DNA from: Edaphobacter aggregans | GTDB taxonomy: Bacteria; Acidobacteriota; Terriglobia; Terriglobales; Acidobacteriaceae | Assembly: GCF_003945235.1 (NCBI RefSeq) | Contig: NZ_RSDW01000001.1 | Coordinates: 2,460,001-2,492,000, forward strand | Direction: 5' to 3' | DNA length: 32,000 nt | In this document: positions 3,066 through 17,869 of the stretch, piece by piece | Layout: each line of letters starts with the position of its first letter | How positions within the stretch are numbered: the first letter of the stretch is position 1 | The notes under the pieces: model-generated | Told to the model about the DNA's origin: nothing | The model's database searches: none | Seen by the model: the letters and a program-made list of their open reading frames with translations, nothing else | Position numbers and translations under genes: made by a program

Positions 3066-5156
3066 TCAATTCGCCGAAGGCCTCTCGACACGGTCAATCA
3101 CAATCACATCTACCGGAGCTTTGGTCGATACCAGCTTCAACCCCAACTGTTCCTGAATCGCGGTGAAAAGGTCCGGCGGAGCATCAGAGCTTTCCGTCGC
3201 CGAATGCATCTCCTCCGGCGTCCACCTCAACCTCAAGTCAAACCTTCCTGCGAGTTCGGTCTGATCCACCACTGGCCGGTCCAGAGCGCCCTGTTGCATT
3301 GCTCCGGCAACATCCGCCATCGTTGCGTTCGTCGCGCCCATATTTCCCGGCGGTCCGAATCCTAGACCTGGGAGTTGGCTAGGATCGCCCTGGCTTCTGG
3401 TCAGTTTGGGACCAGTCTTTGCGACCGTGAGCGCGTACACGCTCAGTTCTCGCTTTTCATAATGAAATTTGAGCTGAAACCGATCCGCCACCAGCTTTCT
3501 GACCATCAATTGCCATTGCTTGATGCTTGGTTCACCCTCGCCATCGGGTACAGCGGAGATATCGTACGTCTCCGAACTAAACCAATCGGGTGCGCCCGCA
3601 ATCTCGCGTCGTTGGAGTCCATAGGCAAACTGGATCAGTTGGCTCAGAGAAATGTGAGTGACCGAAAAGCGGTGCGGATCAAACCAGAATCTCGGTCCAT
3701 GTTCATCAGGACTGCCTGGCTTGATCGTGGCGACTTCAAATGTCGGATTCGCGTCCGCAGCCATGGGAGCCAAGCGCCGTGGAGGCTGGGGAATCGTCCA
3801 CTCAGTCTCTAGCGTGGCGCGTGCAAAATTCAGCGGCAGCGGATTCTGTCCTTGCCTCCACATCCCTGTGATGGAGTTGCCATCGGCGCCCAGAGTGCCT
3901 TCGTATGTGGCAAAGGGAAGATCGATCTTTAGCAAAGAGCCCTTGAACGTGGCGGAAATCGCAGGTATGCCGCCCGTTGGCCCGTCGATGTTGTAGAAGA
4001 TAGCCCTCAACATCGCGTCATCCACCGTCGTGATTTTAACCACAAAGCGTAAGTCTCTATCCGTATGCAGTGTCCCCTGCCAGGTAGCGGCGATGTTCTT
4101 GGCTGGGTTTGCCGGCGCGGATTGAGCCCGAACTTCCGCAACCCTGCCCTCCGTAATATGCAGTAGCCCAAAGACCATCGGAACAGAGATCGCCGCGATC
4201 CCAACGGTGCTTAGCAGTAGTTTTCGGCTCAAATCCAATTTGAGCGTCACCTGATTCGTCATGATGCGAAGAATGCGCTGCTTCAGTTCCGAACCCGTAA
4301 CGCCCGAAATGCATGCGAGGGTAGACTCGGTATAAAACTTGCAGACGTTGAGAATACTCTCTGCATAAACTTCCGCTTCATTGCCGAGCTGCAAAACCGC
4401 TTCATCGCAGGCCCGCTCGCGCTCTTCAATCAGGCGTCGCTCTATCCACCAGACTCCCGGATGAAACCAGAAGATCGCTTCGACCGCCATGTGGATCGCA
4501 GCCGTAAGATTATCGCGACGTAGGACATGGCAATTCTCGTGCGCCAGGATACTGCGAAGCTGGGGCGCCGGAAGTCGATCCACTATTTTTTCTGGCAGCA
4601 GAAGTACCGGACGGATAATGCCGACGATTCCGGGTTCGATCATGCGCGAAGTTGAGAAAACTGGCACATCGATCGGCAGGGGCATTCGAGAAGCCGACCG
4701 CAGCATAGAGCGAATTGCCCACCAGTCGCGCGACCAGCGCAGAAGTAGGAAAAGGAATCCGCACAGCCACAGAACCACAAAAATCTCAGGAAGAAGACTA
4801 CCGTGGTGAGGAGCCGAAGCAACAGTCGCTGGCTCGGCAAAAGCAGTCGTGAACGACTCCGAACTCTGTGGGCTCTGCAAAAAAGGATGTGCCATCTTCA
4901 CCATGGCGCTGGCAAGCTGCGGGCTCCCTATCGGAGACATGCTCGCAGGACGAAGCCAATCACCGATCGCAGCCAGCAGCGAGAATGGCACAAGCAGCTT
5001 GAGAGACGCCGTCATCCAAATCCAGTAGCGCGTCCGCGCCTGGTTACGCTTCAACAGCAGCGTCAGCAGCCACGCCACTAGCATCACCAGCGTCGATTGC
5101 CATAAATGATTGACGATTGCTGCCGACCAGCTTTCTTTCCAGAGCTCGGTGAACAT
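3066..5156 (-). CDS. BlaR1/peptidase M56 family membrane sensor-protease fused to TIGR03435/DUF3738-type C-terminal domain
   Basis: 696 aa. The N-terminal multi-TM region contains an HEXXH zinc motif (AHENCHVLRRDN). The C-terminal part has FEVATIKPGSPDE..., AYGLQRREIAGAPDWF and ...QLGLKLVSTKAPVDVIVIDRVERPSAN, the pattern I know for the soil-bacterial TIGR03435 family. Its ATG lies 2 nt after the blaI-like stop. Confidence 0.85.
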   Translation of the reverse strand: MFTELWKESWSAAIVNHLWQSTLVMLVAWLLTLLLKRNQARTRYWIWMTASLKLLVPFSLLAAIGDWLRPASMSPIGSPQLASAMVKMAHPFLQSPQSSESFTTAFAEPATVASAPHHGSLLPEIFVVLWLCGFLFLLLRWSRDWWAIRSMLRSASRMPLPIDVPVFSTSRMIEPGIVGIIRPVLLLPEKIVDRLPAPQLRSILAHENCHVLRRDNLTAAIHMAVEAIFWFHPGVWWIERRLIEERERACDEAVLQLGNEAEVYAESILNVCKFYTESTLACISGVTGSELKQRILRIMTNQVTLKLDLSRKLLLSTVGIAAISVPMVFGLLHITEGRVAEVRAQSAPANPAKNIAATWQGTLHTDRDLRFVVKITTVDDAMLRAIFYNIDGPTGGIPAISATFKGSLLKIDLPFATYEGTLGADGNSITGMWRQGQNPLPLNFARATLETEWTIPQPPRRLAPMAADANPTFEVATIKPGSPDEHGPRFWFDPHRFSVTHISLSQLIQFAYGLQRREIAGAPDWFSSETYDISAVPDGEGEPSIKQWQLMVRKLVADRFQLKFHYEKRELSVYALTVAKTGPKLTRSQGDPSQLPGLGFGPPGNMGATNATMADVAGAMQQGALDRPVVDQTELAGRFDLRLRWTPEEMHSATESSDAPPDLFTAIQEQLGLKLVSTKAPVDVIVIDRVERPSAN

Positions 5157-6928: not shown

Positions 6929-7510
6929 TCACGCCCGTTTGGAGGTTTTCTTCGCCACCGCCTTCTTCACTGCCTTCTTTACTGAGACCTTCTTCAATGC
7001 CTTTTTAGGAGCCAACTTCTTTGCTGCCTTGGCAGGAGTTGTCCTCTTCTCCCCGGCAACTCTCTTCTTAGCCGGAGCCTTCTTCCCTGCCGCCCCCTTA
7101 CCCGGAGTCTTGGCCACCTCTGCTCCGTTCCCGCTCGATTTCCCTGCCTCATGCGAATTCATCAACCGCTCGATTTGTTCCAGCAAAATCCGCGTATGCA
7201 TGGGCTTCACCAACATCTTGTCGGCGCCCATCTCCTGCCAGTCTTCGTCCGCCAGCGGAAACGCCGTCAGCAGTGCCACCGCGGGATGATACGCCGCCTC
7301 GCGCGCAGTTCGGATCACCTCGGCTCCCGCCTCGTCATTCTCCATTCGCATGTCGGTGATCACCATGTTGTATTCGTTCTTGCGCAGCTTGAACTTGCCG
7401 TCACGCGCGGAAGCGGCCGTATCCACATCAAACCCGCTGATCTCCAGGATTGCCTTCATCGTCAACAGCACAGCCACTTCATCATCCACCAGCAGGATCC
7501 GACGTTTCAT
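6929..7510 (-). CDS. Response regulator receiver domain with Lys/Ala-rich histone-H1-like C-terminal tail
   Basis: The start MKRRILLVDDE is at ATG 7510; the track start at 7630 is upstream. The REC residues are present: DD, ITDMRM, LLTAF, LVKP. The last ~70 aa are AKK/KKA repeats (GKKAPAKKRV...AKKLAPKKALKKVSVKKAVKKAVAKKTSKRA). Confidence 0.85.
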   Translation of the reverse strand: MKRRILLVDDEVAVLLTMKAILEISGFDVDTAASARDGKFKLRKNEYNMVITDMRMENDEAGAEVIRTAREAAYHPAVALLTAFPLADEDWQEMGADKMLVKPMHTRILLEQIERLMNSHEAGKSSGNGAEVAKTPGKGAAGKKAPAKKRVAGEKRTTPAKAAKKLAPKKALKKVSVKKAVKKAVAKKTSKRA

Positions 7511-7659
7511 TGCAGGCCCTCTCTCAGACTTTCTTACAATACACACCTTGCACAGAACACGTCCTTGGATGAAGGCCGACCATCCAACCGTTGTCCCCGG
7601 CCCATCCTGCGTCCCATTCTTCTCATACAACCAACCGTAGGCGGAAAGCAGCTAAGTGG

Positions 7660-7665
7660 TATACT
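7660..7665 (+). promoter_or_regulatory. Candidate -10 box (TATACT) upstream of infC
   Basis: TATACT lies ~88 nt upstream of the proposed ATT start. The -35 is weak (TAGGCG, 17 nt upstream). Confidence 0.25.
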
Positions 7666-7752
7666 TCTTGTTCCAGCGCAACCGAGCAAGCAAGGTGCGC
7701 CAACCCAAAAACAACGCATGGCGAGCCCGATAAAGCCGCTGTGGAGGGACCT

Positions 7753-8382
7753 ATTCCACCAATCGATAAACGTTCCGCAAAGTCTTTCATCCGCACCAAC
7801 GAACGCATCCGCGCACGCGAAATCCGTGTCATCGACGAGAACGGCGAACAACTCGGCGTTATGCCTCCGTTCGAAGCACTCAAAATGGCCCGTGAGCGTT
7901 CCCTTGACCTCGTAGAGATCTCTCCCAACGCCGTCCCGCCAGTCTGCAAAATCCAGGACTACGGCAAATTCCTTTACGAGAAGGACAAGAGCGACCGCGC
8001 CGCCCGCAAGAAGCAGAAGGTCATCGTAATCAAAGAGGTCAAGTTCTCCGTCACCGTAGACGAGCACGACTACCAGACCAAAAAAAATCAGGCTGTTCGC
8101 TTCCTCGGCGATGGCGACAAGGTCAAGGCTTCGCTTCGCTTCAAGGGCCGTCAGATGGCCCACCGCGATCTCGGCTACAAGATTATCAATCGCCTCATCC
8201 TCGATATCGGGGACGCTGGCACGGTTGAGTTTATGCCCCGCATGGAGGGAACAACACTCCACGCCATCCTTGCCCCGTCCAAAAAAGCTGAGGCCGCCCC
8301 GAAAAAGCCCGCTACTGCCTCGGCACCTTCACCTTCGAAGCCCGTCGAGCCCGCCGCACAACCCGCCCCGACCACCGCTTAA
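7753..8382 (+). CDS. infC: Translation initiation factor IF-3, ATT start codon
   Basis: ...IRTNERIRAREIRVIDENGEQLGVM...LDLVEISPNAVPPVCKIQDYGKFLYEK...LRFKGRQMAHRDLG... aligns along its length with E. coli IF3. There is no in-frame ATG near the conserved N-terminus. GGAGGG (7743-7748) sits 4-5 nt before in-frame ATT 7753, giving an N-terminal length like E. coli IF3. The protein ends in a Pro/Ala/Lys-rich tail. Confidence 0.85.
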   Translation: MPPIDKRSAKSFIRTNERIRAREIRVIDENGEQLGVMPPFEALKMARERSLDLVEISPNAVPPVCKIQDYGKFLYEKDKSDRAARKKQKVIVIKEVKFSVTVDEHDYQTKKNQAVRFLGDGDKVKASLRFKGRQMAHRDLGYKIINRLILDIGDAGTVEFMPRMEGTTLHAILAPSKKAEAAPKKPATASAPSPSKPVEPAAQPAPTTA

Positions 8383-8408
8383 AAAGTCAATTCCTCACCC
8401 TCGAACGT

Positions 8409-8434
8409 AGGCTAAGTCCTCAGGGGCTTAGCCT
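8409..8434 (+). terminator. Hairpin after infC (weak terminator candidate)
   Basis: AGGCTAAGTCC-TCA-GGGGCTTAGCCT. No clear T-tract follows. Confidence 0.35.
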
Positions 8435-8711
8435 TGCGTCAATCTGGCTAAGCTTGAGGAAGCACAGTCCTTCGTGTTCGAATCCCCCAAAACTTACCCT
8501 CAGTAATGGCGCACACCTTTGCGCATCGGCCACAATTGTTGCCCTATTTGATCAAATTCAATCTATGAAATTGATGAAGCCGCATTTCCCCATCCAGATA
8601 TTGCCTAACAAGATACCCAAAAACCACATCTTCTAGGCCAGCAAGACCACCGCAATGCCGGGTTCAACATCCAAAGATAATGTTACTTCAGTAATTTGAG
8701 ATGTTTTATAT

Positions 8712-8756
8712 TCCTTTATATACCTCATTACATTGGACTTATTGTCCTTTACATCC
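8712..8756 (+). promoter_or_regulatory. Direct repeats TCCTTTATATACC / TCCTTTACATCC spaced 33 nt apart in the AT-rich upstream region
   Basis: The repeats are at 8712-8724 and 8745-8756. The second ends 20 nt upstream of the predicted -35. By my count, 8691-8760 contains 20 G+C in 70 nt. Confidence 0.4.
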
Positions 8757-8775
8757 TATGGTTACTTTAGCTCGT

Positions 8776-8804
8776 TTGTCCAGAAAAATCTGGAGATGTA
8801 AATA
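8776..8804 (+). promoter_or_regulatory. Candidate sigma70 promoter of the small-peptide genes
   Basis: TTGTCC (8776-8781), a 17-nt spacer, then TAAATA (8799-8804). An AGGGG SD (8812-8816) and ATG 8826 follow. Confidence 0.45.
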
Positions 8805-8825
8805 CGACTTTAGGGGTACTCCATC

Positions 8826-8996
8826 ATGAAGCTTATCGTCCGCGCAGTCGTCGTCGCCCTCGTCCTCACCGGTGCAGCAGCCTCCACCCAGATCGCCTCG
8901 GCCTCTGCTAGCTCCAAAGTCACCATCGCTAAGAACAGTGCTATGCCCATCCCCATGTGCGCTCCCGATGATGCCAATGCCTGCGGCTTGCGCTAA
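8826..8996 (+). CDS. Small secreted peptide A (56 aa, signal peptide plus C-terminal C-x7-C motif), uncharacterised
   Basis: MKLIVRAVVVALVLTGAAASTQIASASASSKVTIAKNSAMPIPMCAPDDANACGLR*. An SD precedes the ATG. The N-terminus has K/R, a hydrophobic core and an ASA-type cleavage site. It has a paralog 237 nt downstream, and the differences are mostly synonymous in the C-terminal motif. Confidence 0.7.
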   Translation: MKLIVRAVVVALVLTGAAASTQIASASASSKVTIAKNSAMPIPMCAPDDANACGLR

Positions 8997-9062
8997 CGTC
9001 CCCTAAACATTCGCAATCTTTCTAAGTATCCAAAATATCAGCTAGATGCAAAGGCCAATCCC

Positions 9063-9233
9063 GTGAAAACTATCGTACGTACTTTCGTCGCAGCCATTGT
9101 CCTCTTGGGTGCAGCAGCCTCCACCCAGATTGCCTCCGCCTCCAACCAAACCAAGGTTACCGTCGCCAAGACCAGTGCCATGCCGATTCCCATGTGCGCT
9201 CCTGATGATCCCAATGCCTGTGGTTTGCGCTAA
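9063..9233 (+). CDS. Small secreted peptide B (56 aa), paralog of peptide A
   Basis: GTG start after AAAGG: (M)KTIVRTFVAAIVLLGAAASTQIASASNQTKVTVAKTSAMPIPMCAPDDPNACGLR*. It has the same length as peptide A and 44/56 identical residues. I count 15 synonymous codon differences between the two genes. Confidence 0.7.
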   Translation: MKTIVRTFVAAIVLLGAAASTQIASASNQTKVTVAKTSAMPIPMCAPDDPNACGLR

Positions 9234-9256
9234 ACCAAGTTGGTAAGATTATCAAA

Positions 9257-9281
9257 GTAACCGAGATATTTATTGTAACCG
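9257..9281 (+). promoter_or_regulatory. Direct repeat GTAACCG-N11-GTAACCG upstream of the 7-TM gene
   Basis: GTAACCG occurs at 9257-9263 and 9275-9281, in the 93-nt gap between peptide B and the membrane-protein gene. Confidence 0.3.
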
Positions 9282-9326
9282 CCTCAAAGTTAGGCTACGC
9301 TGATGGTAGTCATTGGGAGGCGGTCA

Positions 9327-10232
9327 ATGTCTCAAGGCATATTTGTCGCGGCGTTATCTTACCTTGAACTAATTTTTTGCGCAGTAGTTCTTCTGGCTTT
9401 GGTGCGCTCTGGAGCAGCTCGCAAGTTCATCTTTTTGACTTCGCTGCTCGGTATAAAGCTCATCTCCGGATTAGCAGGCTCGATTATTCTCGGTTTGTCA
9501 TCGCGAGGGATTGAGCGGCATCTCGCCTATCAGATGTATTTTTACGTCTACTGGATTTCATATGCCCTGGAGGCGATCTTTTCCCTCCTTGTCATCTACA
9601 GCATCTTTAAGCTAGCGATGGCTCCGCTGAAGGGTTTGCAAACTCTTGGAATGCTGGTCTTCCGGTGGGTTGCAGCGATTTCGGTTGCAGTTGCCATCGG
9701 CGTTGCGCTCACGCCGCACCTCTCCGGTGTGAAGTTCATGGTCTCCATGGTCACGCAGCTTCAACAGACATCGAGCATTCTCACGCTTTGTCTATTGCTG
9801 TTCGTCTGTTTTGCTATTCGTCCAATGGGTCTTTCCTACCGCAGCCGAATTTTTGGCGTGAGCTTTGGCCTTGGCTTTCTGGCAGCGGTCAGCCTGGTGG
9901 ATTCCGCATGGCTCTCACATAATTCCAATTTGTACTCCACCATCAACATCATTAATGGTGCAGCGATCTGCCTGACCCTTCTCATCTGGTCAGCTTACTT
10001 CACGTTCCCGGAGCCAAAGCGCCGCTTCATCGTTCTACCCACCACTTCGCCATTCCTGCGGTGGAACCAGATCTCGATGGCTTTGGGCGATGACCCCGGC
10101 TATGTAGCCATCGGCGGCATTCCACCTGAGCTGTTCGCACCGGCTGAACTTGAGGTCATGCGGCGTGCGTCGGCAAAGATGCCTGGCAATTTGGAAGGCC
10201 ACGCTGGGGTGCATCACTCCATCTCCGCGTAG
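9327..10232 (+). CDS. Orphan polytopic membrane protein (about 7 TM helices plus ~70-aa soluble tail), no recognisable domain
   Basis: I prefer ATG 9327 (MSQGIFVAALSYLE...), preceded by GGGAGG at 9315-9320, over ATG 9303. About seven hydrophobic stretches of ~20 aa are visible by eye. The C-terminal tail is PEPKRRFIVLPTTSPFLRWNQ...GHAGVHHSISA. Confidence 0.75.
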   Translation: MSQGIFVAALSYLELIFCAVVLLALVRSGAARKFIFLTSLLGIKLISGLAGSIILGLSSRGIERHLAYQMYFYVYWISYALEAIFSLLVIYSIFKLAMAPLKGLQTLGMLVFRWVAAISVAVAIGVALTPHLSGVKFMVSMVTQLQQTSSILTLCLLLFVCFAIRPMGLSYRSRIFGVSFGLGFLAAVSLVDSAWLSHNSNLYSTINIINGAAICLTLLIWSAYFTFPEPKRRFIVLPTTSPFLRWNQISMALGDDPGYVAIGGIPPELFAPAELEVMRRASAKMPGNLEGHAGVHHSISA

Positions 10233-10268
10233 CACCATCGCACACCATACTGATTCATCAGGGCAACA

Positions 10269-10300
10269 AAAGAGGCCATCCCAAGCGGGATGGCCTCTTT
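10269..10300. terminator. Bidirectional intrinsic terminator between the 7-TM gene and rpsA
   Basis: The perfect stem AAGAGGCCATCCC-AAGC-GGGATGGCCTCTT is followed by TTTATTCTT on the plus strand and TTTGTTG on the minus strand. Confidence 0.85.
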
Positions 10301-10326
10301 ATTCTTATAGCCTTTGAGAGTTGAGC

Positions 10327-12273
10327 CTACTCGCGCTCTGACTCAGATCGCTTCCAATTGATCAGATCACCCAGCGTCGTGCTGCTGCTCGATGAAGAAG
10401 ACGAACTCGAGGAACCCTTGGGAGACTTGTCGCGCTCCTTATAGCTCTCGACCTCTGCACGGCTGGCCTCTTCGCCAACGGCCCGGATGCTGAGACCGAC
10501 CTTCTTCTCATCCTGGTTCATCTTGACGATCTTGAACTCGTGCTCAGAGTCAACGTCCAGCTGCACCGGCTTGTTGTCCGCGCCGACAGCCTCGGACACA
10601 TGGCACAATCCCTCGACTCCTTCAGCGATCTCAACAAAGGCACCGAACTGCGCCGTACGCAGAATCTTGCCCTTGATGACGTCGCCAACGCGATGCTGTG
10701 CGAAGAACGTCTCCCAAACATCAGGCTGCAACTGCTTGACGCCTAGCGACAGGCGGCGATTCTCAGGCTCAACGCCCAGAACGATCGCCTTGACCTTCTC
10801 GCCCTTCTTCAGAACCTCAGAAGGATGCTTGATCCGCTTGGTCCAGCTCAAGTTCGAGACGTGCACCAAACCATCAATCCCGTCTTCGATCTCGATGAAT
10901 GCACCGAAGTCGGTCAGGTTGCGAACACGACCCTCAATGATCGCGCCGGTAGGATACTTATCCTCCAGCTGCTCCCATGGATTCTCCTGCAGCTGCTTCA
11001 TACCCAGCGAGATGCGCCGATCGTTCGGGTTCACGCTCAGAATGATCGTGTCGACCTCATCGCCCGGCTTGACCATCTTCGACGGATGCTTCATCCGCTT
11101 GCTCCATGTCATTTCAGACACGTGCACGAGACCCTCAATGCCCTGCTCCAGCTCGACGAACGCGCCGTAGTCAGTAACCGACAGAACACGGCCACGAACC
11201 TGCGCACCAATCGGGTAGCGCTCCGTCGCATCAAGCCACGGATCAGGCGTCAACTGCTTGAAGCCCAGCGACACGCGCTGTTTGTCCTTGTCGAACTTCA
11301 GAACCTTCACCTGAATCTCGTCGCCGACGTTCACCAGATCACGCGGATGCGTCAACCGGCCCCAGCTCATGTCAGTGATGTGCAGCAGGCCATCAAGGCC
11401 GCCCATATCGACGAACGCGCCGTAGTCGGTCAGGTTCTTTACCGTTCCGGTCAGAATGCTGCCCTCTTCCAGAGTCGCGAGCGTAACAGCCTTCTTCGCG
11501 TTCTGGTCTTCTTCGAGCAGTTCCTTCCGGCTGATCACAACGTTGCCACGCTTCTTGTTCAGCTTGATGACGCGGACTTCGATCTCCGTGCCGATATAGC
11601 CGTCCAGATTGCGCACTGGACGAACCTCAACCTGCGATCCGGGCAAAAACGCCTTGATGCCGATATCGACGGTCAGGCCACCCTTGACGCGGCTCAGAAC
11701 CATGCCCTTGACGGGCGTCTTCTCGTTAGCGGCCTGCTCCAGCTTGTCCCAGACCTTATGGCGAAGCGCCTTCTCGTAGCTGACCAGGTAGCCACCTTCG
11801 GGCTCCTCGCGTTCAACCACAACCTCAACAGAATCTCCGGCCTGGAACTTGGACACACCATTGATGTCCAGAACCTGGTCCAGCGGAATCAGACCTTCCG
11901 ACTTGAGCCCGATATCGACAACGACATGTTTGTCCGTAATCTTGACCACGGTACCAGTAACGATGACCTCTTCTGCGGTCAGGCTCTGTGCGGCGGCAGC
12001 GTCAGCAGCCTGCTCGCGGTCAAAATTCGCCAATGCGGCCGCAAAATCGGCTGCATCATAGTCCGGCTCGTCGTGGGAGGCGTCGATCGCGGTGGCTACA
12101 TGGCCATGCTCTTCGCTCGCACTTGACGTGTCGTGGGCGGTCTCATGCTGTTGGGTTGAGGTGGATTCAGAAGACAGGGCGGCGTTCTCCGCTGTCGCTT
12201 CGGGCGCTAGGACTTCCAGTTCGGTGGTCAGGGGTTTGCTCTCGGCTTGTTCAGGATTATGGTTATCTACCAT
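10327..12273 (-). CDS. rpsA: 30S ribosomal protein S1
   Basis: Six S1/OB repeats are present (e.g. GTVVKITDKHVVVDIG, GMVLSRVKGGLTVDIG, GTVKNLTDYGAFVDMGGLDGLLHITDMSW, GRVLSVTDYGAFVELEQGIEGLVHVSEM...). I prefer ATG 12273 over the TTG at 12297. Confidence 0.9.
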   Translation of the reverse strand: MVDNHNPEQAESKPLTTELEVLAPEATAENAALSSESTSTQQHETAHDTSSASEEHGHVATAIDASHDEPDYDAADFAAALANFDREQAADAAAAQSLTAEEVIVTGTVVKITDKHVVVDIGLKSEGLIPLDQVLDINGVSKFQAGDSVEVVVEREEPEGGYLVSYEKALRHKVWDKLEQAANEKTPVKGMVLSRVKGGLTVDIGIKAFLPGSQVEVRPVRNLDGYIGTEIEVRVIKLNKKRGNVVISRKELLEEDQNAKKAVTLATLEEGSILTGTVKNLTDYGAFVDMGGLDGLLHITDMSWGRLTHPRDLVNVGDEIQVKVLKFDKDKQRVSLGFKQLTPDPWLDATERYPIGAQVRGRVLSVTDYGAFVELEQGIEGLVHVSEMTWSKRMKHPSKMVKPGDEVDTIILSVNPNDRRISLGMKQLQENPWEQLEDKYPTGAIIEGRVRNLTDFGAFIEIEDGIDGLVHVSNLSWTKRIKHPSEVLKKGEKVKAIVLGVEPENRRLSLGVKQLQPDVWETFFAQHRVGDVIKGKILRTAQFGAFVEIAEGVEGLCHVSEAVGADNKPVQLDVDSEHEFKIVKMNQDEKKVGLSIRAVGEEASRAEVESYKERDKSPKGSSSSSSSSSSSTTLGDLINWKRSESERE

Positions 12274-12612
12274 GTGATTGCGGACTCCGGGATCCAAGGG
12301 TACGTTCCATCTCGGGCGTCGCTTCAGGAACCATCAGCGCTCTGTTTAGGAGGCTGGCTGGTCTTCCATCCCGTAAAAACTCGTCAGGCAGGAATGAACG
12401 ACATCTAGCAGAGGAGCGGCTGCACTTGGGTCCCCCACGCAGTGGCTCACCTAAAATCATAGAACTTCGAACCCAATACGTCAACAGAACTGCCCTCGCG
12501 CGACAGCATTTTCACCGCCACGTCATCCATTCCTGTCAAATCGCCCTCCCGCTCACCTCGCACATACCAAACCGCCAGCCAGAACGGATCCACCCGCTAT
12601 ACTCGCCCATAT

Positions 12613-13221: not shown

Positions 13222-13620
13222 ACCCAGGCGAAAACTTCGCCCTGATTGAGGGGATCCTATGGCAAATCTACCTAAGTACCCTCCCGCATCTGTCCGGCCG
13301 GGCTCATCTTCATCTCGCACAAGCAATAACCGCGATCCAGAGCCACGACCTTACCTCCTCACCCTGCAACTTCGGAAACCTGGTTCTTCAGAGAAGCGCT
13401 TTGTTCCTCTTTTTCCCCACGAGTCCGAAGACGCACGCCTCACTGGCTCTACCCGTTCTCTCTACCGCAGGTTGCTGGCCCTGAATCTTCCTGGAGCCAG
13501 CCGCGAAATCGAGGTCTCAGCGAAGACCACTATTGTCAGCTCAAAGATAGCCTGAACCTCTGAGCTGCAACCGAGATACCAAGTCCACCGCTCACTTATT
13601 GAGTTGGCGGGATGAGATAA

Positions 13621-13653
13621 AGATGCCCCAGCGAAAAGCTGGGGCATCTTTTT
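13621..13653 (+). terminator. Strong intrinsic terminator with no obvious gene in front of it
   Basis: AGATGCCCCAGC-GAAAA-GCTGGGGCATCT is followed by TTTT. It lies 400 nt after the HIT stop and 130 nt before the next start codon. Confidence 0.75.
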
Positions 13654-13784
13654 ACAACAAAATTACATGGACGCGACAGCTTCTTACTCCATCCACTATT
13701 CTTCTCACACAGCCTGGGACTATACTTGCCACGCTCTCAGAAACATCTCCTGAGAACGGTTCTTCAGTAGCCCGTGGAGGCGAC

Positions 13785-15320
13785 ATGACGACCACCTCTG
13801 GATCCATCGCAGCTTTGCTGGCCATCGCTCTGTTCGGAACTGCTTCGCGAGCACAGGAAGTCTCCAATCCAATCCAGACCGGAGACAAGACCGAAGCGTC
13901 CGCTCCAACACTTCCGCAATCCTCACCTACACCTAATGGTCCCGCAGGCGTGCGCATCGTCCGCCTCAGCCAGGTGAACGGTGAGGTGGAGTTGGATCGC
14001 AAGACCGACCGCGGATTCGAGACGGCATTCACCAATCTTCCTGTCGCACAAAGTCAGCGATTACAGACTCACCAGGGTATAGCTGAGGTGGAGTTCGAAG
14101 ACAACAGTACATTGCGCATCACCCCCAACACCCAAATCGAATTTCCCGCTCTCCAGCGCAGTCCCGCCGGCGCGACAATCACTACCGTCAAGCTATTGAC
14201 CGGCACTCTCTATGTAAGTCTCGCTGGAACCAAAGGAAACGAGTTCACCGTTACCCTCGGCAACGACACGATCGTCCTCACACCCTCCAGCCACATTCGC
14301 ATCGACTCGGATGCATCCAAAGCGAAGCTTAGTGTCTTCAACGGCAGTGTGCAGGTTGCGAACTCGTTAGGCACCACGACGGTGGGCAAAAACAAAGCGC
14401 TCGCCTTCGATGCCAACACGCAAGCTCCTCCGGTAGTGGCCAAGAATGAAGAACCCGGCGCCTTTGACGAATGGGACAAGAAAGAGATGGACTATCACAA
14501 TCTCCGTTCCGTCCCGGCAGCGTACGGAGGGGGCTCCTCTCTCTACGGCATCAACGACCTCAACTACTACGGCAGTTTTTCGGATGTGGGAGGATGCGGC
14601 TCCATGTGGCGTCCTTACCTTGCCAGCGCAGCCTTTGATCCCTTCGCCAACGGTGTCTGGGCCTGGTATCCCAGTGCTGGCTACTCCTGGGTATCTCCGT
14701 ACCCATGGGGCTGGACTCCATTCCACTACGGCAGTTGGAATTACTGTCCGGGTAGCGGCTGGGGCTGGCAGCCAGGCGGCCAGTGGACCGGCATCGCCAA
14801 CTATCAGACCACTCTTAACCCCGCCCGCTGCGCGACCTGCCCGAAGCCTCCGCGTGCTCCGGTTGCCGGCCAGTCCACGCTGGTCGTCGTCAATAACAAA
14901 CCCCTTGCCGTCTCGCGGCTATCCTCATCATCCGACACCTTCGTCTTCCACAAAGACTCCGCGGGCCTTGGAGTGCCTCGCCAATCCTTCGGCAACCTGA
15001 ATAAGATCTCTTCAGGAGTAGCGCAACACGGCTCCGTATCGACCCCTGCGTTTGTATCAAATCCGGCTGGTCCCGAACGCGGCAACAACGCATGGGCTGC
15101 TCACAACGCGGAAGGTCAAAACAGGTCCAACAGCGCGTCGACTCACGCCGATCAGAGTTCTCGATCGTCCGGATCTTGGTCGAACGCATCTCACACCTCT
15201 TCGTCGGGCCAATCTTCACCCGGCGGCTGGTCAGGTGGATCCCACGCATCTTCGCCATCGCCTTCACCTGCATCCTCTGGTGGACCTGCGCCCGCTGCCA
15301 GTGCCCCCAGTCACAAATAA
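13785..15320 (+). CDS. Secreted FecR-domain protein with Trp/Gly/Tyr-rich C-terminal region and Ser-rich tail
   Basis: GGAGG sits 4 nt before ATG 13785. The signal peptide is MTTTSGSIAALLAIALFGTASRAQE. The FecR-like beta-sandwich segment is RIVRLSQVNGEVELDRK...AEVEFEDNSTLRITPNTQIEF...LLTGTLYVS. Further on comes ...YPWGWTPFHYGSWNYCPGSGWGWQPGGQW. The track start at 13599 overlaps the upstream terminator and is rejected. Confidence 0.75.
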   Translation: MTTTSGSIAALLAIALFGTASRAQEVSNPIQTGDKTEASAPTLPQSSPTPNGPAGVRIVRLSQVNGEVELDRKTDRGFETAFTNLPVAQSQRLQTHQGIAEVEFEDNSTLRITPNTQIEFPALQRSPAGATITTVKLLTGTLYVSLAGTKGNEFTVTLGNDTIVLTPSSHIRIDSDASKAKLSVFNGSVQVANSLGTTTVGKNKALAFDANTQAPPVVAKNEEPGAFDEWDKKEMDYHNLRSVPAAYGGGSSLYGINDLNYYGSFSDVGGCGSMWRPYLASAAFDPFANGVWAWYPSAGYSWVSPYPWGWTPFHYGSWNYCPGSGWGWQPGGQWTGIANYQTTLNPARCATCPKPPRAPVAGQSTLVVVNNKPLAVSRLSSSSDTFVFHKDSAGLGVPRQSFGNLNKISSGVAQHGSVSTPAFVSNPAGPERGNNAWAAHNAEGQNRSNSASTHADQSSRSSGSWSNASHTSSSGQSSPGGWSGGSHASSPSPSPASSGGPAPAASAPSHK

Positions 15321-15412
15321 ATTCCTCGAATTCGCCGATTAACGCGAACTGAAAAGAAAGTGTGTGCGTAATCCCTTCCGCTGGGAAGAGCACCCTTCTT
15401 CGAGGAGAAGTC

Positions 15413-17869
15413 ATGCAGTCAATGCTCCAGGACCTTCGTTACGGACTGCGCCAACTGCGTAAATCGCCAGGTTTCACGTTAACGGCCGTGTTGACCTTGG
15501 CATTAGGCATAGGAGCAACGACAGCCCTCTTCAGCGTCGTCGACGGCGTGCTCCTCAAGCCCCTCGCCTATCGCGACAGCGGCCACCTGGTCGTCGTATG
15601 GGAGCGGGTTCGCTATATCGAAAAGCTCTTCCCCTACGTCGGAGCCAATGCCCGGCACGCCGACATCTGGCGTCGCCAGTCCACGGCCTTCACCGACCTC
15701 ACTCTCTTCCAGCAAGGTTCCACCGGCGTCAGCCTCGGCGTCGATCACCCTCGCCTCGTCGGCAGAATCACCGCCCAGCCGAACCTCCTCGATGTCCTCG
15801 GTGTCCAGCCCACTCTGGGCCGCAACTTCCTGCCGGAGGAAGCTGTGGAAGGACACGAGCAGGTCGCCATCATCAGCTGGCATCTCTGGCAAACCCTCTT
15901 CAACGGCGACAACGGCATCATCGGAAAGTCCGTTCAAATGGCCGGAACGCCATTCCAAATCGTAGGCGTCCTTCCTCAGAACTTTTACTTTCCCAAGTCG
16001 AACGAATTATCACCATCACCAGTGGCTCGCCAACTCCCCGACAGCGAGATCGTCACCCCTCTCGTGATTGATCCCACTAAAAACTACGGATGGAACAGCG
16101 ACTACGGCAACTACGTTGCATTCGGCCGCCTCAAGCCCGGCATATCGCTCGCCCAGGCCACGGAAAATCTCAACATCATCGCAGACGATATCGCCCGTCA
16201 GATTCCGCCCAATCAAATCGACGGCAACCCGCGCGGCGCGCTCGCCACCTACATCCAGCCGCTCAAAGAAGCCATCGTAGGCCCAACTGCGGCGCGTCTC
16301 TGGCTTCTTCTGGCCGCAGTATGCAGCGTTCTTCTCATCGCCTGCGTCAACCTGGCAAACGCCCAGCTCGCCCGGTTTGTGCATCGCGACCGCGAAGTAG
16401 CACTACGCTCTGCCCTCGGCGCATCTTCCGCACGACTCCTGCAAAGCGCTCTAGCCGAAGTCTGCCTTCTTTCCATCGTTGGCGGAACACTAGGAGTGGG
16501 ACTGGCTTTTGCCGCAGTCCATTGGTTCTCGAGCTTCGCGCAGACCGCGATTCCCCGGATGAACTCTATCTCGATCAACTTTGTCGTGCTCGCACTCTCT
16601 GTCCTGCTGACCGTCGGAGCATCCTTCATCTTTGGTGTACTTCCGGCCCTGCGTGTCCTCCACATCAAGCCCCAGCAGGCCCTGCAAGGACTTGGTCGCG
16701 CATCCGGATCTCGCCGAAGCAATCTATTGCGACGCTGGCTCGTCGGAGCGCAGGTGTTTTTCTGCACAACGTTATTGGTCGTCTCAGGACTCTTCGCCAA
16801 AAGCTTGATTCGTCTCTCGACATTCGACAAAGGCTTCTCGACCGACCACGTCGTTGCAGCGGATGTCGTCCTTCAAGGCAAGGCCTTCACGGAAAAAGCT
16901 CGCGCCACCTTCGACGACGGAGTTCTCGAAAAACTGCGTGCGATTCCCGGAGTGCAATCGGCATCCATAGTCAGCGCGATGCTGCTGGAGGGAGAGACCT
17001 GGCTCGATGGTATTTCGCCCACCGGCCAACCCGACCAGCGAAGCGCCATCGCCAACTATCGATTTATAGGCCCTGACTACTTCGCAACGTTGCAGGAACG
17101 AGTCATCGAAGGCCGCGCCCTCAACGACCACGACCGCGGAACCAAAAATGCAGTGATCTCGGAAACCACAGCCAGGGCGGTATGGCCGAATCAGGATCCG
17201 GTCGGCCGCCAGTTCACCCACAACGGACAAGCCACGACTATAGTTGGCATCGTCGCTGACGCACACAATAACTCGCTACGATCCGCACCGGTCAACATGG
17301 TCTATCTGCCCTATTGGGACGACCCTCCCAGGAGCGCCTACTTCCTCGTGCGGGGTTCGCAAGATCCATCCCTTCTCATAGGAGCTGTGCGCACCGCTAT
17401 CTGGAACTACAATCCCGACGTCACAATCGCCCGCGTTCATACTCTGGATTCGCAGGTAAGCGATTCGCTCGCACCCGAACATCTCCAGACCACCATCTTC
17501 GTTGCATTTGGCGCAGCCGCGCTTCTCCTTGCCCTTCTCGGCATCTACGGAACGTTGAGCTACTCCGTCGAAGCCCGCACGCAGGAAGTAGGCATTCGCA
17601 TGGCCTTAGGAGCAACACGCCAGAGCGTCTATCGGCTGATGCTGGGAACGATCGTTGCGCCAGTCCTCACCGGCCTTGCTCTGGGCTGGATCGCGAGCCT
17701 CAGCATCGGCAAAAGCCTCGCAGCGCTGCTCTATGGAACATCCCCCAGCGATATATCTGTGGTTCTACCCGTAATCGGCATCTTCGCCGTCGCCGCCGGA
17801 GCCGCAACATTCCTGCCGTGCAAACGCGCAGCCGCAATTGAGCCCATGGAAGCCCTCCGAACGGACTAA
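15413..17869 (+). CDS. ADOP-family ABC transporter permease (MacB-like periplasmic domain plus FtsX, duplicated)
   Basis: GAGGAG precedes ATG 15413. The N-terminal [38 protein letters not shown] is the signature of TIGR03434 (Acidobacterial duplicated orphan permease). There are two FtsX-like 4-TM halves. No ATPase gene is adjacent. Confidence 0.85.

Follow-up and report, generated by a model that had tools for sequence, protein, structure and literature searches.

In agr systems, a ring-and-tail autoinducing peptide derived from AgrD is sensed by the polytopic membrane protein AgrC, and an agr-type cassette has reportedly been captured by a phage, the Clostridioides phage phiCDHM1. The Rap-Phr/RRNPP systems are two-gene cassettes that join the gene of a short pro-peptide, equipped with a Sec signal, to the adjoining gene of its cognate receptor, a cytoplasmic TPR protein that is reached via Opp import, and phage versions of these cassettes are also known (arbitrium). 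The MgrB and AcrZ proteins, with fewer than 60 amino acids, are genetically and functionally tied to the larger membrane proteins PhoQ and AcrB, respectively, and are uncleaved single-pass membrane proteins present at modest levels. Here we describe a locus that recalls each of these systems, located in a 32,000-nucleotide stretch of the Edaphobacter aggregans genome (contig NZ_RSDW01000001.1; hereafter the window, to which all positions refer unless a locus number is given). The locus is a module of a predicted exported peptide and a dedicated membrane partner, a seven-transmembrane (7-TM) protein. Neither its two protein families nor two of its cis elements have been described before. Its three genes, which lie on the same strand, are as follows:

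8826-8996, + strand: peptide A precursor, ATG start, 56 amino acids, MKLIVRAVVVALVLTGAAASTQIASA followed by SASSKVTIAKNSAMPIPMCAPDDANACGLR
9063-9233, + strand: peptide B precursor, GTG start, 56 amino acids, MKTIVRTFVAAIVLLGAAASTQIASA followed by SNQTKVTVAKTSAMPIPMCAPDDPNACGLR
9327-10232, + strand: orphan 7-TM protein, 301 amino acids (open reading frame (ORF) 9303/9327-10232)

A first-pass annotation of this DNA had proposed two small exported-type peptides and a 301-amino-acid protein with about seven membrane helices and a tail of no nameable domain, all of which were recovered at or near these positions. It had likened the layout to two-peptide bacteriocin operons and to pairs of a peptide signal and a membrane receptor, of which the latter reading is tentatively preferred here.

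The module resembles agr in that a small tailed peptide with a putative C-terminal macrocycle is encoded beside a membrane protein of six to seven helices with very short external loops. It differs from agr in that the membrane protein lacks a histidine-kinase (HisKA/HATPase) domain and no AgrB-type processing or cyclising enzyme is encoded, while the response regulator gene of the locus, although syntenic, is separated from the module by infC and missing at distant loci. Furthermore, the ring would be a disulfide rather than a thiolactone, export would be by the Sec pathway, the host is diderm, and the peptide is conserved across genera and not diversified. The module shares with the Rap-Phr/RRNPP cassettes the short pro-peptide with a Sec signal encoded immediately beside its presumed receptor; however, its gene order is reversed, its peptide gene is tandemly amplified and its partner is a 7-TM membrane protein rather than a cytoplasmic one. 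It likewise shares with MgrB-PhoQ and AcrZ-AcrB the tie between a protein of fewer than 60 amino acids and a larger membrane protein, but in this case the small protein is probably cleaved to a soluble peptide of the periplasm, and its gene dosage is amplified.

A literature search on the peptide/7-TM pair found no description. Few soil bacteria are as abundant as the Acidobacteria, and few are as poorly understood in their genetics. The pair is found in nearly every examined genome of a major family of this phylum (79/80), yet is without annotation in any curated library searched.

Linkage of the peptide and 7-TM genes

One genome per species was scanned, giving 278 relatives of the 7-TM protein, of which the best 80 (58-92% identity) were analysed. 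The named genera among these best 80 of the 278 are Edaphobacter, Granulicella, Tunturiibacter and Terriglobus, with nearly all others being Acidobacteriaceae or Acidobacteriota metagenome-assembled genomes. One to six tandem peptide genes are located directly upstream of the 7-TM gene, on the same strand, in 79/80 species genomes, and at the 80th locus only 105 nt of upstream DNA is present. The last peptide copy typically ends approximately 90-170 nt before the 7-TM start. Across all loci analysed, approximately 30 carry one peptide gene, 22 carry two, 19 three, eight four, five five and two six, where the counts at L022, L027 and L059 (one of which is E. aggregans DSM 19364) are minimum values, with masked N runs inside the arrays. 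The copies within one genome are near-identical paralogs. Most of the 80 loci have a common frame, namely response regulator (-), infC (+), peptides (+), 7-TM (+) and rpsA (-), and synteny of the locus extends across Edaphobacter, Granulicella and Tunturiibacter, with Terriglobus having the locus as well.

Because the closest 80 genomes are syntenic over the whole region, from the response regulator and infC to rpsA, adjacency within them cannot count as independent evidence, and the peptide and 7-TM genes might be unrelated neighbours that stay together through regional synteny alone. This explanation is close to refuted by the loci where the neighbours have changed. Nine distinct loci make up a distant set, in which the 7-TM relatives are 27-39% identical and the neighbours include gyrB, rpsA, the trp operon, rpmA-rplU and acetyl-CoA synthetase, and a peptide ORF, called or uncalled, lies directly upstream at 8/9 of them. 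All eight distant peptide ORFs share an N-terminal M-K-x-x-x-R-hydrophobic segment, usually ending T-G, and seven of the eight have a C-terminal Cys-x(4-7)-Cys loop, usually Pro-flanked, with a single Cys in L092. The pair also apparently occurs together in a phage genome, and the peptide distances track the 7-TM distances beyond rpsA (partial r = 0.58, permutation p = 0.001). Peptide divergence tracks the periplasmic half of the 7-TM protein slightly better than the cytoplasmic half (0.30 vs 0.13, each controlled for the other). This co-divergence is supportive, but weakly so, of a ligand-receptor pair.

Look-ups that started from three peptide proteins led to eight places, where a similar-sized gene follows right after the peptides wherever the downstream DNA suffices, and the long contigs among them display the full frame from response regulator to rpsA. 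The peptide-started look-ups thus concur with those from the 7-TM protein, and neither gene was found to be widespread without the other. The self-contained module of the first-pass annotation is therefore upheld, with the peptides directly upstream in 79/80 genomes and persisting at 27-39% 7-TM identity in all but one locus (L091). All source names, those of the distant clade included, are Acidobacteriota. The module is a vertically inherited, ancient working unit specific to Acidobacteria.

The peptides

A protein identical to peptide A (P0207) is annotated as hypothetical in Edaphobacter aggregans, while peptide B has 249 homologs, the source names of which, where given, are all Edaphobacter or Granulicella. 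Peptides A and B constitute a tandem duplication with a spacing of 237 nt and a DNA identity of 78-86%. The nonsynonymous (dN) and synonymous (dS) divergence between A and B are 0.156 and 0.721, respectively (ratio 0.22), and the median dN/dS over 1787 ortholog/paralog pairs of peptide genes is 0.18. These low ratios indicate that they are real coding genes under purifying selection.

Both precursors begin with M-K-x-I-V-R, followed by a 13-14-residue hydrophobic core ending T/L-G-A-A-A-S, an A-S-A site and a mature part of approximately 30 residues. The mature part ends S-A-M-P-I-P-M-C-A-P-D-D-x-N-A-C-G-L-R and is almost invariant across genera, the C-terminal loop pattern of both peptides being P-x-P-x-C-x-P-D-D-P-N-x-C-G. 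Judging by K2, R6, the length of the hydrophobic core and the A-x-A site, the peptides would carry a Sec signal peptide. The signal part (N-termini at 8826-8903 and 9063-9140) is as constrained as the mature part, with dN/dS values of 0.178 and 0.181, respectively. AlphaFold2 modelling of the peptide alone is confident for the signal helix only, with low confidence elsewhere.

The N-terminal M-K-x-x-(I/V)-R-(A/F)...T-G is the best-kept part in the most distant homologs, which is unusual for a mere export signal. The peptide, or its hydrophobic N-terminal segment, cleaved or not, could accordingly be a stoichiometric small subunit of a 7-TM membrane complex, as would suit the strict gene adjacency, the constraint on the N-terminus and the confinement of model confidence to the N-terminal helix. 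However, a 13-14-residue core with a plausible A-x-A site is found in every homolog, which is of the cleaved-signal type and too short for a stable transmembrane helix, and the variable copy number and separate translational control argue against a 1:1 stoichiometry. We regard a subunit role as distinctly unlikely.

A Sec-dependent bacteriocin, or toxin, with a polytopic immunity protein has also been considered. Class II bacteriocin operons, including Sec-dependent and class IIb ones, similarly comprise exported small peptides and then a membrane protein on one strand, with a disulfide near the peptide C-terminus, and the multiple peptide copies of the module would fit this reading. A C-terminal disulfide loop is known in some class II microcins and bacteriocins. 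The module is, however, core and syntenic, occupying the same chromosomal site in each of the 80 species genomes that were examined, with vertical inheritance and no plasmid copy, and the peptide is under strong purifying selection and near-identical across genera. Furthermore, no outer-membrane exporter was found, there is no GG motif before the core, no ABC (ATP-binding cassette)/C39 transporter gene adjoins the module in the window or the related loci, and the 7-TM protein has no match to known bacteriocin immunity families (CPBP/Abi, EntA_Immun and similar) in Pfam/NCBIfam. A toxin-immunity pair is highly unlikely on these grounds, and the two-peptide form raised in the first-pass annotation is excluded by the approximately 30 single-copy loci, as the peptides occur in one to six near-identical copies and not as two complementary peptides.

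Neither the peptides nor the 7-TM protein could be placed credibly in a family of Pfam, NCBIfam, PADLOC or PHROGs. The NCBIfam matches were sub-threshold and of the signal-peptide type only (MarB, MTB12), and PADLOC, which covers anti-phage defence, assigned no family to any of the three proteins. With regard to ribosomally synthesized and post-translationally modified peptides (RiPPs), no enzyme gene is present inside the module, and the peptide N-terminus is a Sec-type signal and not a recognizable RiPP leader. Several further readings of the peptides were rejected: that of a lipoprotein, as there is no Cys in residues 1-40; that of a Braun-type peptidoglycan tether, as the C-terminal residue varies; that of a PEP-CTERM/exosortase substrate, as the peptides are without a C-terminal anchor; and that of copper binding via MxxxM, as the Met residues vary in distant homologs.

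The 7-TM protein

The start of the 7-TM gene is the ATG at 9327, from which the orthologs align, with GGGAGG (9315-9320) located 6 nt upstream. The translated protein product is 100% identical to an E. aggregans entry. The structure prediction advised in the first-pass annotation bears out its count of about seven helices: in the AlphaFold2 model, based on 45 diverse homologs, seven long helices are joined by inter-helix loops of 1-7 residues (pLDDT 88.7, pTM 0.82), and the C-terminal tail of approximately 75 residues, from 227 to 301, has two short helices. The N-terminus is likely outside and the C-terminal tail cytoplasmic, because positive residues follow helices 1 and 5.

The 7-TM family is large, with more than 2153 proteins in a 90%-clustered collection and 743 clusters at 50% identity matched at E <= 1e-3, but it is unnamed and undescribed. 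No Pfam family was matched by more than two of 45 family members (best E = 0.0029), Pfam 7TMR-DISM had no match at E <= 1 in any of the 45, no Pfam domain was found in the approximately 75-amino-acid tail, and there was no TPR match in the 7-TM protein. A Foldseek search against the PDB yielded no matches at E <= 1e-3, the top ones having E-values of 0.024-0.4 and TM-scores of 0.32-0.46. These weak top matches are nearly all GPCRs (G protein-coupled receptors), the GPCR-like part of LYCHOS and microbial rhodopsins; they show a generic seven-helix bundle and nothing more. The protein is thus akin to 7TMR-DISM proteins and GPCRs in its seven-helix bundle and probable N-out/C-in topology, with GPCR-type folds as its only fold matches. 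It differs from them in being a bare bundle with a short tail, without an extracellular sensor or intracellular output domain, and in its fold matches remaining at E >= 0.024 and TM-score <= 0.46. Matches to JNK/MAP kinases in a profile search of PDB sequences (E ~6e-4, over TM7 and the tail) were dismissed as chance, since no membrane helix can share ancestry with the lobe of a kinase.

Where a column is conserved in 90% or more of the 45 diverse members, the residue is never His, Asp, Glu or Cys, which argues against an enzyme, redox or heme protein. Conservation is concentrated in the cytoplasmic halves of helices 4-6, the cytoplasmic loops and the proximal tail, with a mean of 0.53 on the cytoplasmic side vs 0.34 on the periplasmic side (p = 1e-13), and the cytoplasmic tail carries the conserved motif PEPxR...LPxTSPxxRWNxIAxALG. 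The seven helices, the lack of conserved His, Asp, Glu and Cys residues, the weak GPCR-type fold matches and the cytoplasmic conservation point to a receptor-like rather than an enzyme-like protein.

The peptide might instead be an effector in its own right, abundant in the periplasm or envelope, such as a protease inhibitor with a disulfide loop or a buffer of metals or redox state, with the 7-TM protein as its dedicated handler in anchoring, maturation, turnover or passage and not a receiver of signals. The peptide genes have a high-dosage design (one to six copies, a conserved strong-looking promoter and an open leader), the near-invariance of the ring across genera suggests a conserved molecular target, and the core-genome location is beside housekeeping genes. 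A nine-residue disulfide ring with Pro at ring position 6 is also reminiscent of Bowman-Birk/SFTI-type loops, a resemblance we take as a lead only. The residues that define Bowman-Birk loops (Thr at P2, Ser at P1') are, however, missing from the ring, and the variation of the ring-adjacent Met residues in distant homologs speaks against a metal site. Moreover, the 7-TM protein is without conserved catalytic or charged intramembrane residues, and no similarity to transporters, peptidases or transferases was found for it in Pfam and NCBIfam. An effector and its handler are consequently considered somewhat unlikely, and the ligand and receptor reading is retained as the preferred one.

Regulatory elements of the module

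Two blocks of conserved non-coding DNA accompany the genes, one upstream of the peptides and one between the peptides and the 7-TM gene:

8683-8694: palindrome TTAC-N4-GTAA (GTTACTTCAGTAAT), approximately 80 nt upstream of the presumed transcription start
8695-8732, + strand: AT-rich block T..ATA.T....TAT.T...T.ATT in the alignment of 40 loci, G+C 0.43
8733-8762, + strand: promoter-like pair for the peptides, TTGGAC 8733-8738, N18, TATGGT 8757-8762, conserved columns ATT.GACTTA ... ATC.TAT..TT
8766-8825, + strand: conserved 5' leader TGTCCAG.GAAATC ... A.TAC AACT TT.GG.G in the 40-locus alignment, Shine-Dalgarno AGGGG 8812-8816
9273-9301, + strand: promoter-like element in the peptide-to-7-TM spacer, TTGTAA 9273-9278, N17, TACGCT 9296-9301
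9278-9324, + strand: stem-loop, 5' arm 9278-9285, 3' arm 9317-9324

The spacer between infC and the peptides has no cross-species conservation until approximately 8680, where it rises steeply over 8677-8684 (from 3 to 43 loci) and continues to the start codon of peptide A, so that the conserved promoter/leader block upstream of the peptides is 145 nt long. The palindrome at its 5' edge is the sole match to TTAC-N4-GTAA in the window (chance expectation 0.05) and is kept as (G)TTAC.T.AGTAA in 40 aligned loci, including L082, where the 7-TM protein is only 33% identical. It is a candidate operator or activator site; a putative resemblance to a LexA-type box has been dropped. The adjoining AT-rich block may act as an UP element, which it resembles, and the pair at 8733-8762 would be the peptide promoter, although a simple sigma-70 scan gave no call there. 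The peptide leader is not strongly structured (z = -0.22), and the peptide ribosome-binding site should therefore be accessible. A search of Rfam 15 over 7000-11000 at E <= 1 returned no leader-element match, with one chance snoRNA match elsewhere.

Between the peptides and the 7-TM gene, the element TTGT.T-N17-TA...T is common to 78 loci and has a sigma-70-like pattern of invariant letters; across 42 loci, TTG is invariant and the T-A-n-n-n-T letters are kept in at least 70%. A separate promoter for the 7-TM gene may be located here, at 9273-9301. Alternatively, the conserved TTG and GCTAGGCT letters could be RNA-level features of one regulatory hairpin. The stem-loop at 9278-9324 folds at -25.7 kcal/mol (z = -3.75), and its 3' arm covers 4/6 bases of the 7-TM Shine-Dalgarno GGGAGG. 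At least six of the 12 nt at -16..-5 are paired in 72/77 loci, with many different arm sequences, and while the arms vary by lineage they always pair the region just 3' of TTGT with the Shine-Dalgarno region. With RNAalifold, no pairs were predicted from the MAFFT alignment of 7-TM leaders, in which indels had shifted the hairpin arms out of register. The hairpin was derived by per-sequence folding, a hand-given structure and covariance-model realignment. The resulting covariance model has exactly one match per locus in 74/92 sources, compensatory changes are found at 11/11 hairpin pairs, and the covariation score of 0.30 compares with 0.18 in shuffles (0/500 reach 0.30) and 0.06-0.14 in slid controls. 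A CsrA site in the hairpin loop was ruled out, there being no GGA motif.

An additional palindrome, TGCA-N6-TGCA / GCAA-N-TTGC, is located between the last peptide gene and the TTGT element in most related loci (e.g. L009:3918-3936). It is missing in the window and in L001, and the window has ACCAAGTTGGT at the equivalent 9234-9244.

Proposed function of the module

The tandem amplification of the peptide genes, the 145-nt promoter/leader block and the covarying hairpin over the ribosome-binding site of the partner are hallmarks of strong, specific control. The copy number of one to six, the unstructured peptide leader, and the covarying hairpin and promoter-like element before the 7-TM gene further suggest an unequal dosage of peptide and 7-TM protein. 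We tentatively favour a model in which the peptide, abundant in the periplasm and closed into a disulfide loop, acts on a 7-TM protein that is receptor-like, dedicated to it and sparsely made, as a ligand-receptor or effector-sensor pair of the inner membrane, a model that is quite possible if short of probable. It is also intended to account for the joint inheritance of the two genes among differing neighbours, their place in the core genome, the near-invariant Pro-rich ring of the peptide, the non-enzymatic character and cytoplasmic conservation of the 7-TM protein and the probable capture by a phage.

According to this model, the pre-peptides encoded by the tandem genes would be exported by the Sec pathway and cut by signal peptidase after approximately residue 26, leaving a periplasmic peptide of approximately 30 residues, in which a C-terminal nine-residue ring, C-A-P-D-D-P-N-A-C, would be closed by a disulfide. 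The peptide would be made in large amounts through a strong regulated promoter, an open ribosome-binding site and one to six gene copies, and would act, by physical binding, on the periplasmic side of the co-encoded 7-TM protein. The latter would be made sparingly, from a weak promoter of its own and with its ribosome-binding site sequestered in read-through transcripts. Read-through RNA from the peptide promoter would carry both hairpin arms and so have the 7-TM ribosome-binding site closed, whereas RNA begun at the internal promoter would be without the 5' arm and translatable, which would uncouple the abundant peptide from its scarce membrane partner. The 7-TM protein may then relay the signal via its highly conserved cytoplasmic face and tail to some partner.

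Several observations weigh against this model. No output domain, linked kinase or other transducer is recognizable, the best fold match is not significant (E = 0.024), and the periplasmic loops, at only 1-6 residues, are the least conserved part of the 7-TM protein. The mature peptide is almost invariant across genera, whereas specific pheromones usually diversify, and binding of the peptide to the 7-TM protein is presumed. Sec export leaves the peptide in the diderm periplasm, and cell-to-cell signalling would need a further exit route. The co-divergence analysis relied on rpsA, which, at a mean distance of only 0.05, is weak as a phylogenetic control. Finally, one family member, at L091 (P0374, 317 amino acids, 28% identity; L091:2870-3823), is without an upstream peptide ORF. 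The L091 7-TM gene, which is located near a HipA-like gene, could represent a paralog that has become decoupled or mobile.

If the 7-TM protein is indeed a receptor, it would be one of the rare minimal GPCR-like sensors of bacteria to which a peptide ligand is genetically linked. A more far-reaching proposal, which we offer as speculation with the odds against it, is that the module represents an unrecognised peptide signalling system of the Acidobacteriaceae. Here, a Sec-exported disulfide-ring ligand and a bare GPCR-like 7-TM receptor, signalling to some partner by way of its conserved cytoplasmic tail, would be encoded in the core genome under their own promoter/operator, with an RNA switch that uncouples ligand and receptor synthesis, and a jumbo phage would have captured the pair to manipulate or eavesdrop on its host.

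A probable phage copy of the pair

A protein search of GenBank phages gave one match, gp204 of the 309-kb jumbo Tunturiibacter phage Tunturi_5, which is annotated as hypothetical. The host of this phage, T. psychrotolerans X4BP1, carries the chromosomal module (L071). The phage locus is as follows:

L101:2499-3702 (PP885688.1, about 143,383-144,586), - strand: phage pair, gp204 and its upstream ORF

Comparison of gp204 with the 7-TM family by hhalign gave a probability of 95% and E = 3.8e-8 over 223 aligned columns, and gp204 retains the family motifs YFxxYW and W..F..(D/P)EPR. Its remote homology to the 7-TM family can be taken as established at the level of sequence profiles. An unannotated 103-amino-acid ORF, at about 144,275-144,586 of the phage record on the - strand, lies in the 395-nt gap directly upstream of gp204. 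It begins MKKYLALVALALLMSLSHAARA-QQAIPTTPSDPTTVCDPTDPSCLDS and encodes a signal peptide and a C-D-P-T-D-P-S-C loop, which is within the variation of the host peptides, and then a long Asp/Pro/Thr-rich tail. It is a probable peptide homolog, the similarity being at motif level. A good Shine-Dalgarno precedes an internal ATG of gp204 (L101:2842), 31 nt past the end of the upstream ORF, and the annotated gp204 start is probably mis-set. The phage pair adjoins an ADP-ribosyltransferase toxin gene. The published description of the Tunturi phages does not mention gp204 or the upstream ORF (PMC11924767), and pattern scans of IMG/VR with the host family and with gp204 found no relatives.

The probable phage copy suggests that the two genes form a unit that works by itself and that an infecting phage profits from manipulating them. 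Whatever its function, the module adds two families to the known proteins and two elements to the known cis-regulatory sequences, and comes with a phage and host that can be cultivated, Tunturi_5 and Tunturiibacter psychrotolerans X4BP1.

Boundaries and neighbouring genes

The genes and hairpin that flank the module in the window are:

6929-7630, - strand: response regulator, receiver domain only with a Lys/Ala/Pro-rich, histone-H1-like C-terminal tail (...KKAPAKKRVAGEKRTTPAKAAKKLAPKKALKKVSVKKAVKKAVAKK...)
7591-8382 (ORF-finder extent), + strand: infC, with IF3_N and IF3_C domains, upstream of the module
10269-10300: intrinsic terminator hairpin, predicted to serve the convergent 7-TM gene (+) and rpsA (-)
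10327-12297, - strand: rpsA, convergent with the 7-TM gene

The hairpin at 10269-10300 has a 14-bp perfect stem with eight GC pairs and a 4-nt loop, AAAG at its 5' end and CTTT+ATTCTT at its 3' end. With a GC-rich stem, an A-run before and a T-run after, it is predicted to be a bidirectional Rho-independent terminator, in agreement with the first-pass annotation. An equivalent GC-rich hairpin with A and T runs and covarying stems (dG <= -18 kcal/mol) is present 3' of the 7-TM gene in 70/77 related loci. Upstream, the first-pass annotation had bounded the module by an infC hairpin and an AT-rich region. The 5' boundary of the module is sharp, with the conserved edge at 8677-8684. The hairpin (AGGCTAAG/CTTAGCCT at 8409-8434) does exist, but was not flagged by the terminator scan and is common to only approximately two other loci.

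The G+C content is 0.43 at 8400-8799 and 0.46-0.52 in the first part of the 7-TM gene, compared with 0.55-0.59 in the flanks. The lower G+C content, which the first-pass annotation had noted, is thus confirmed and is due to intergenic regulatory DNA and membrane-protein codon content. The accompanying suggestion of accessory or horizontally acquired DNA is not borne out, given the synteny across genera and a plasmid search, which gave no match for homologs of the module.

As the first-pass annotation had also remarked, no GG-leader, ABC exporter, kinase or modifying enzyme adjoins the module, the closest transporter-type gene being a MacB/FtsX permease 5 kb off. The other neighbours in the window are typical of Acidobacteria and comprise a BlaR1-type M56 peptidase with DUF3738 (3066-5156, - strand), a FecR/DUF6600 protein (13599-15320, + strand) and the MacB/FtsX-type permease (15362-17869, + strand); none of these is found within the 4-kb flanks of the module analysed in related genomes. 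The response regulator, which is divergent from infC, keeps its synteny with the module at most of the 80 loci and is missing at distant ones; it might be the DNA-binding protein of the conserved palindrome. The rpmI-rplT genes, which in many bacteria come next after infC, are not there (8383-8825), and a spacer of approximately 300 nt, which is not conserved, instead separates infC from the peptide module. The product of rpsA, ribosomal protein S1, has an N-terminal extension of approximately 100 amino acids and a C-terminal run of 13 serines (KGSSSSSSSSSSSSSTTLGD...).

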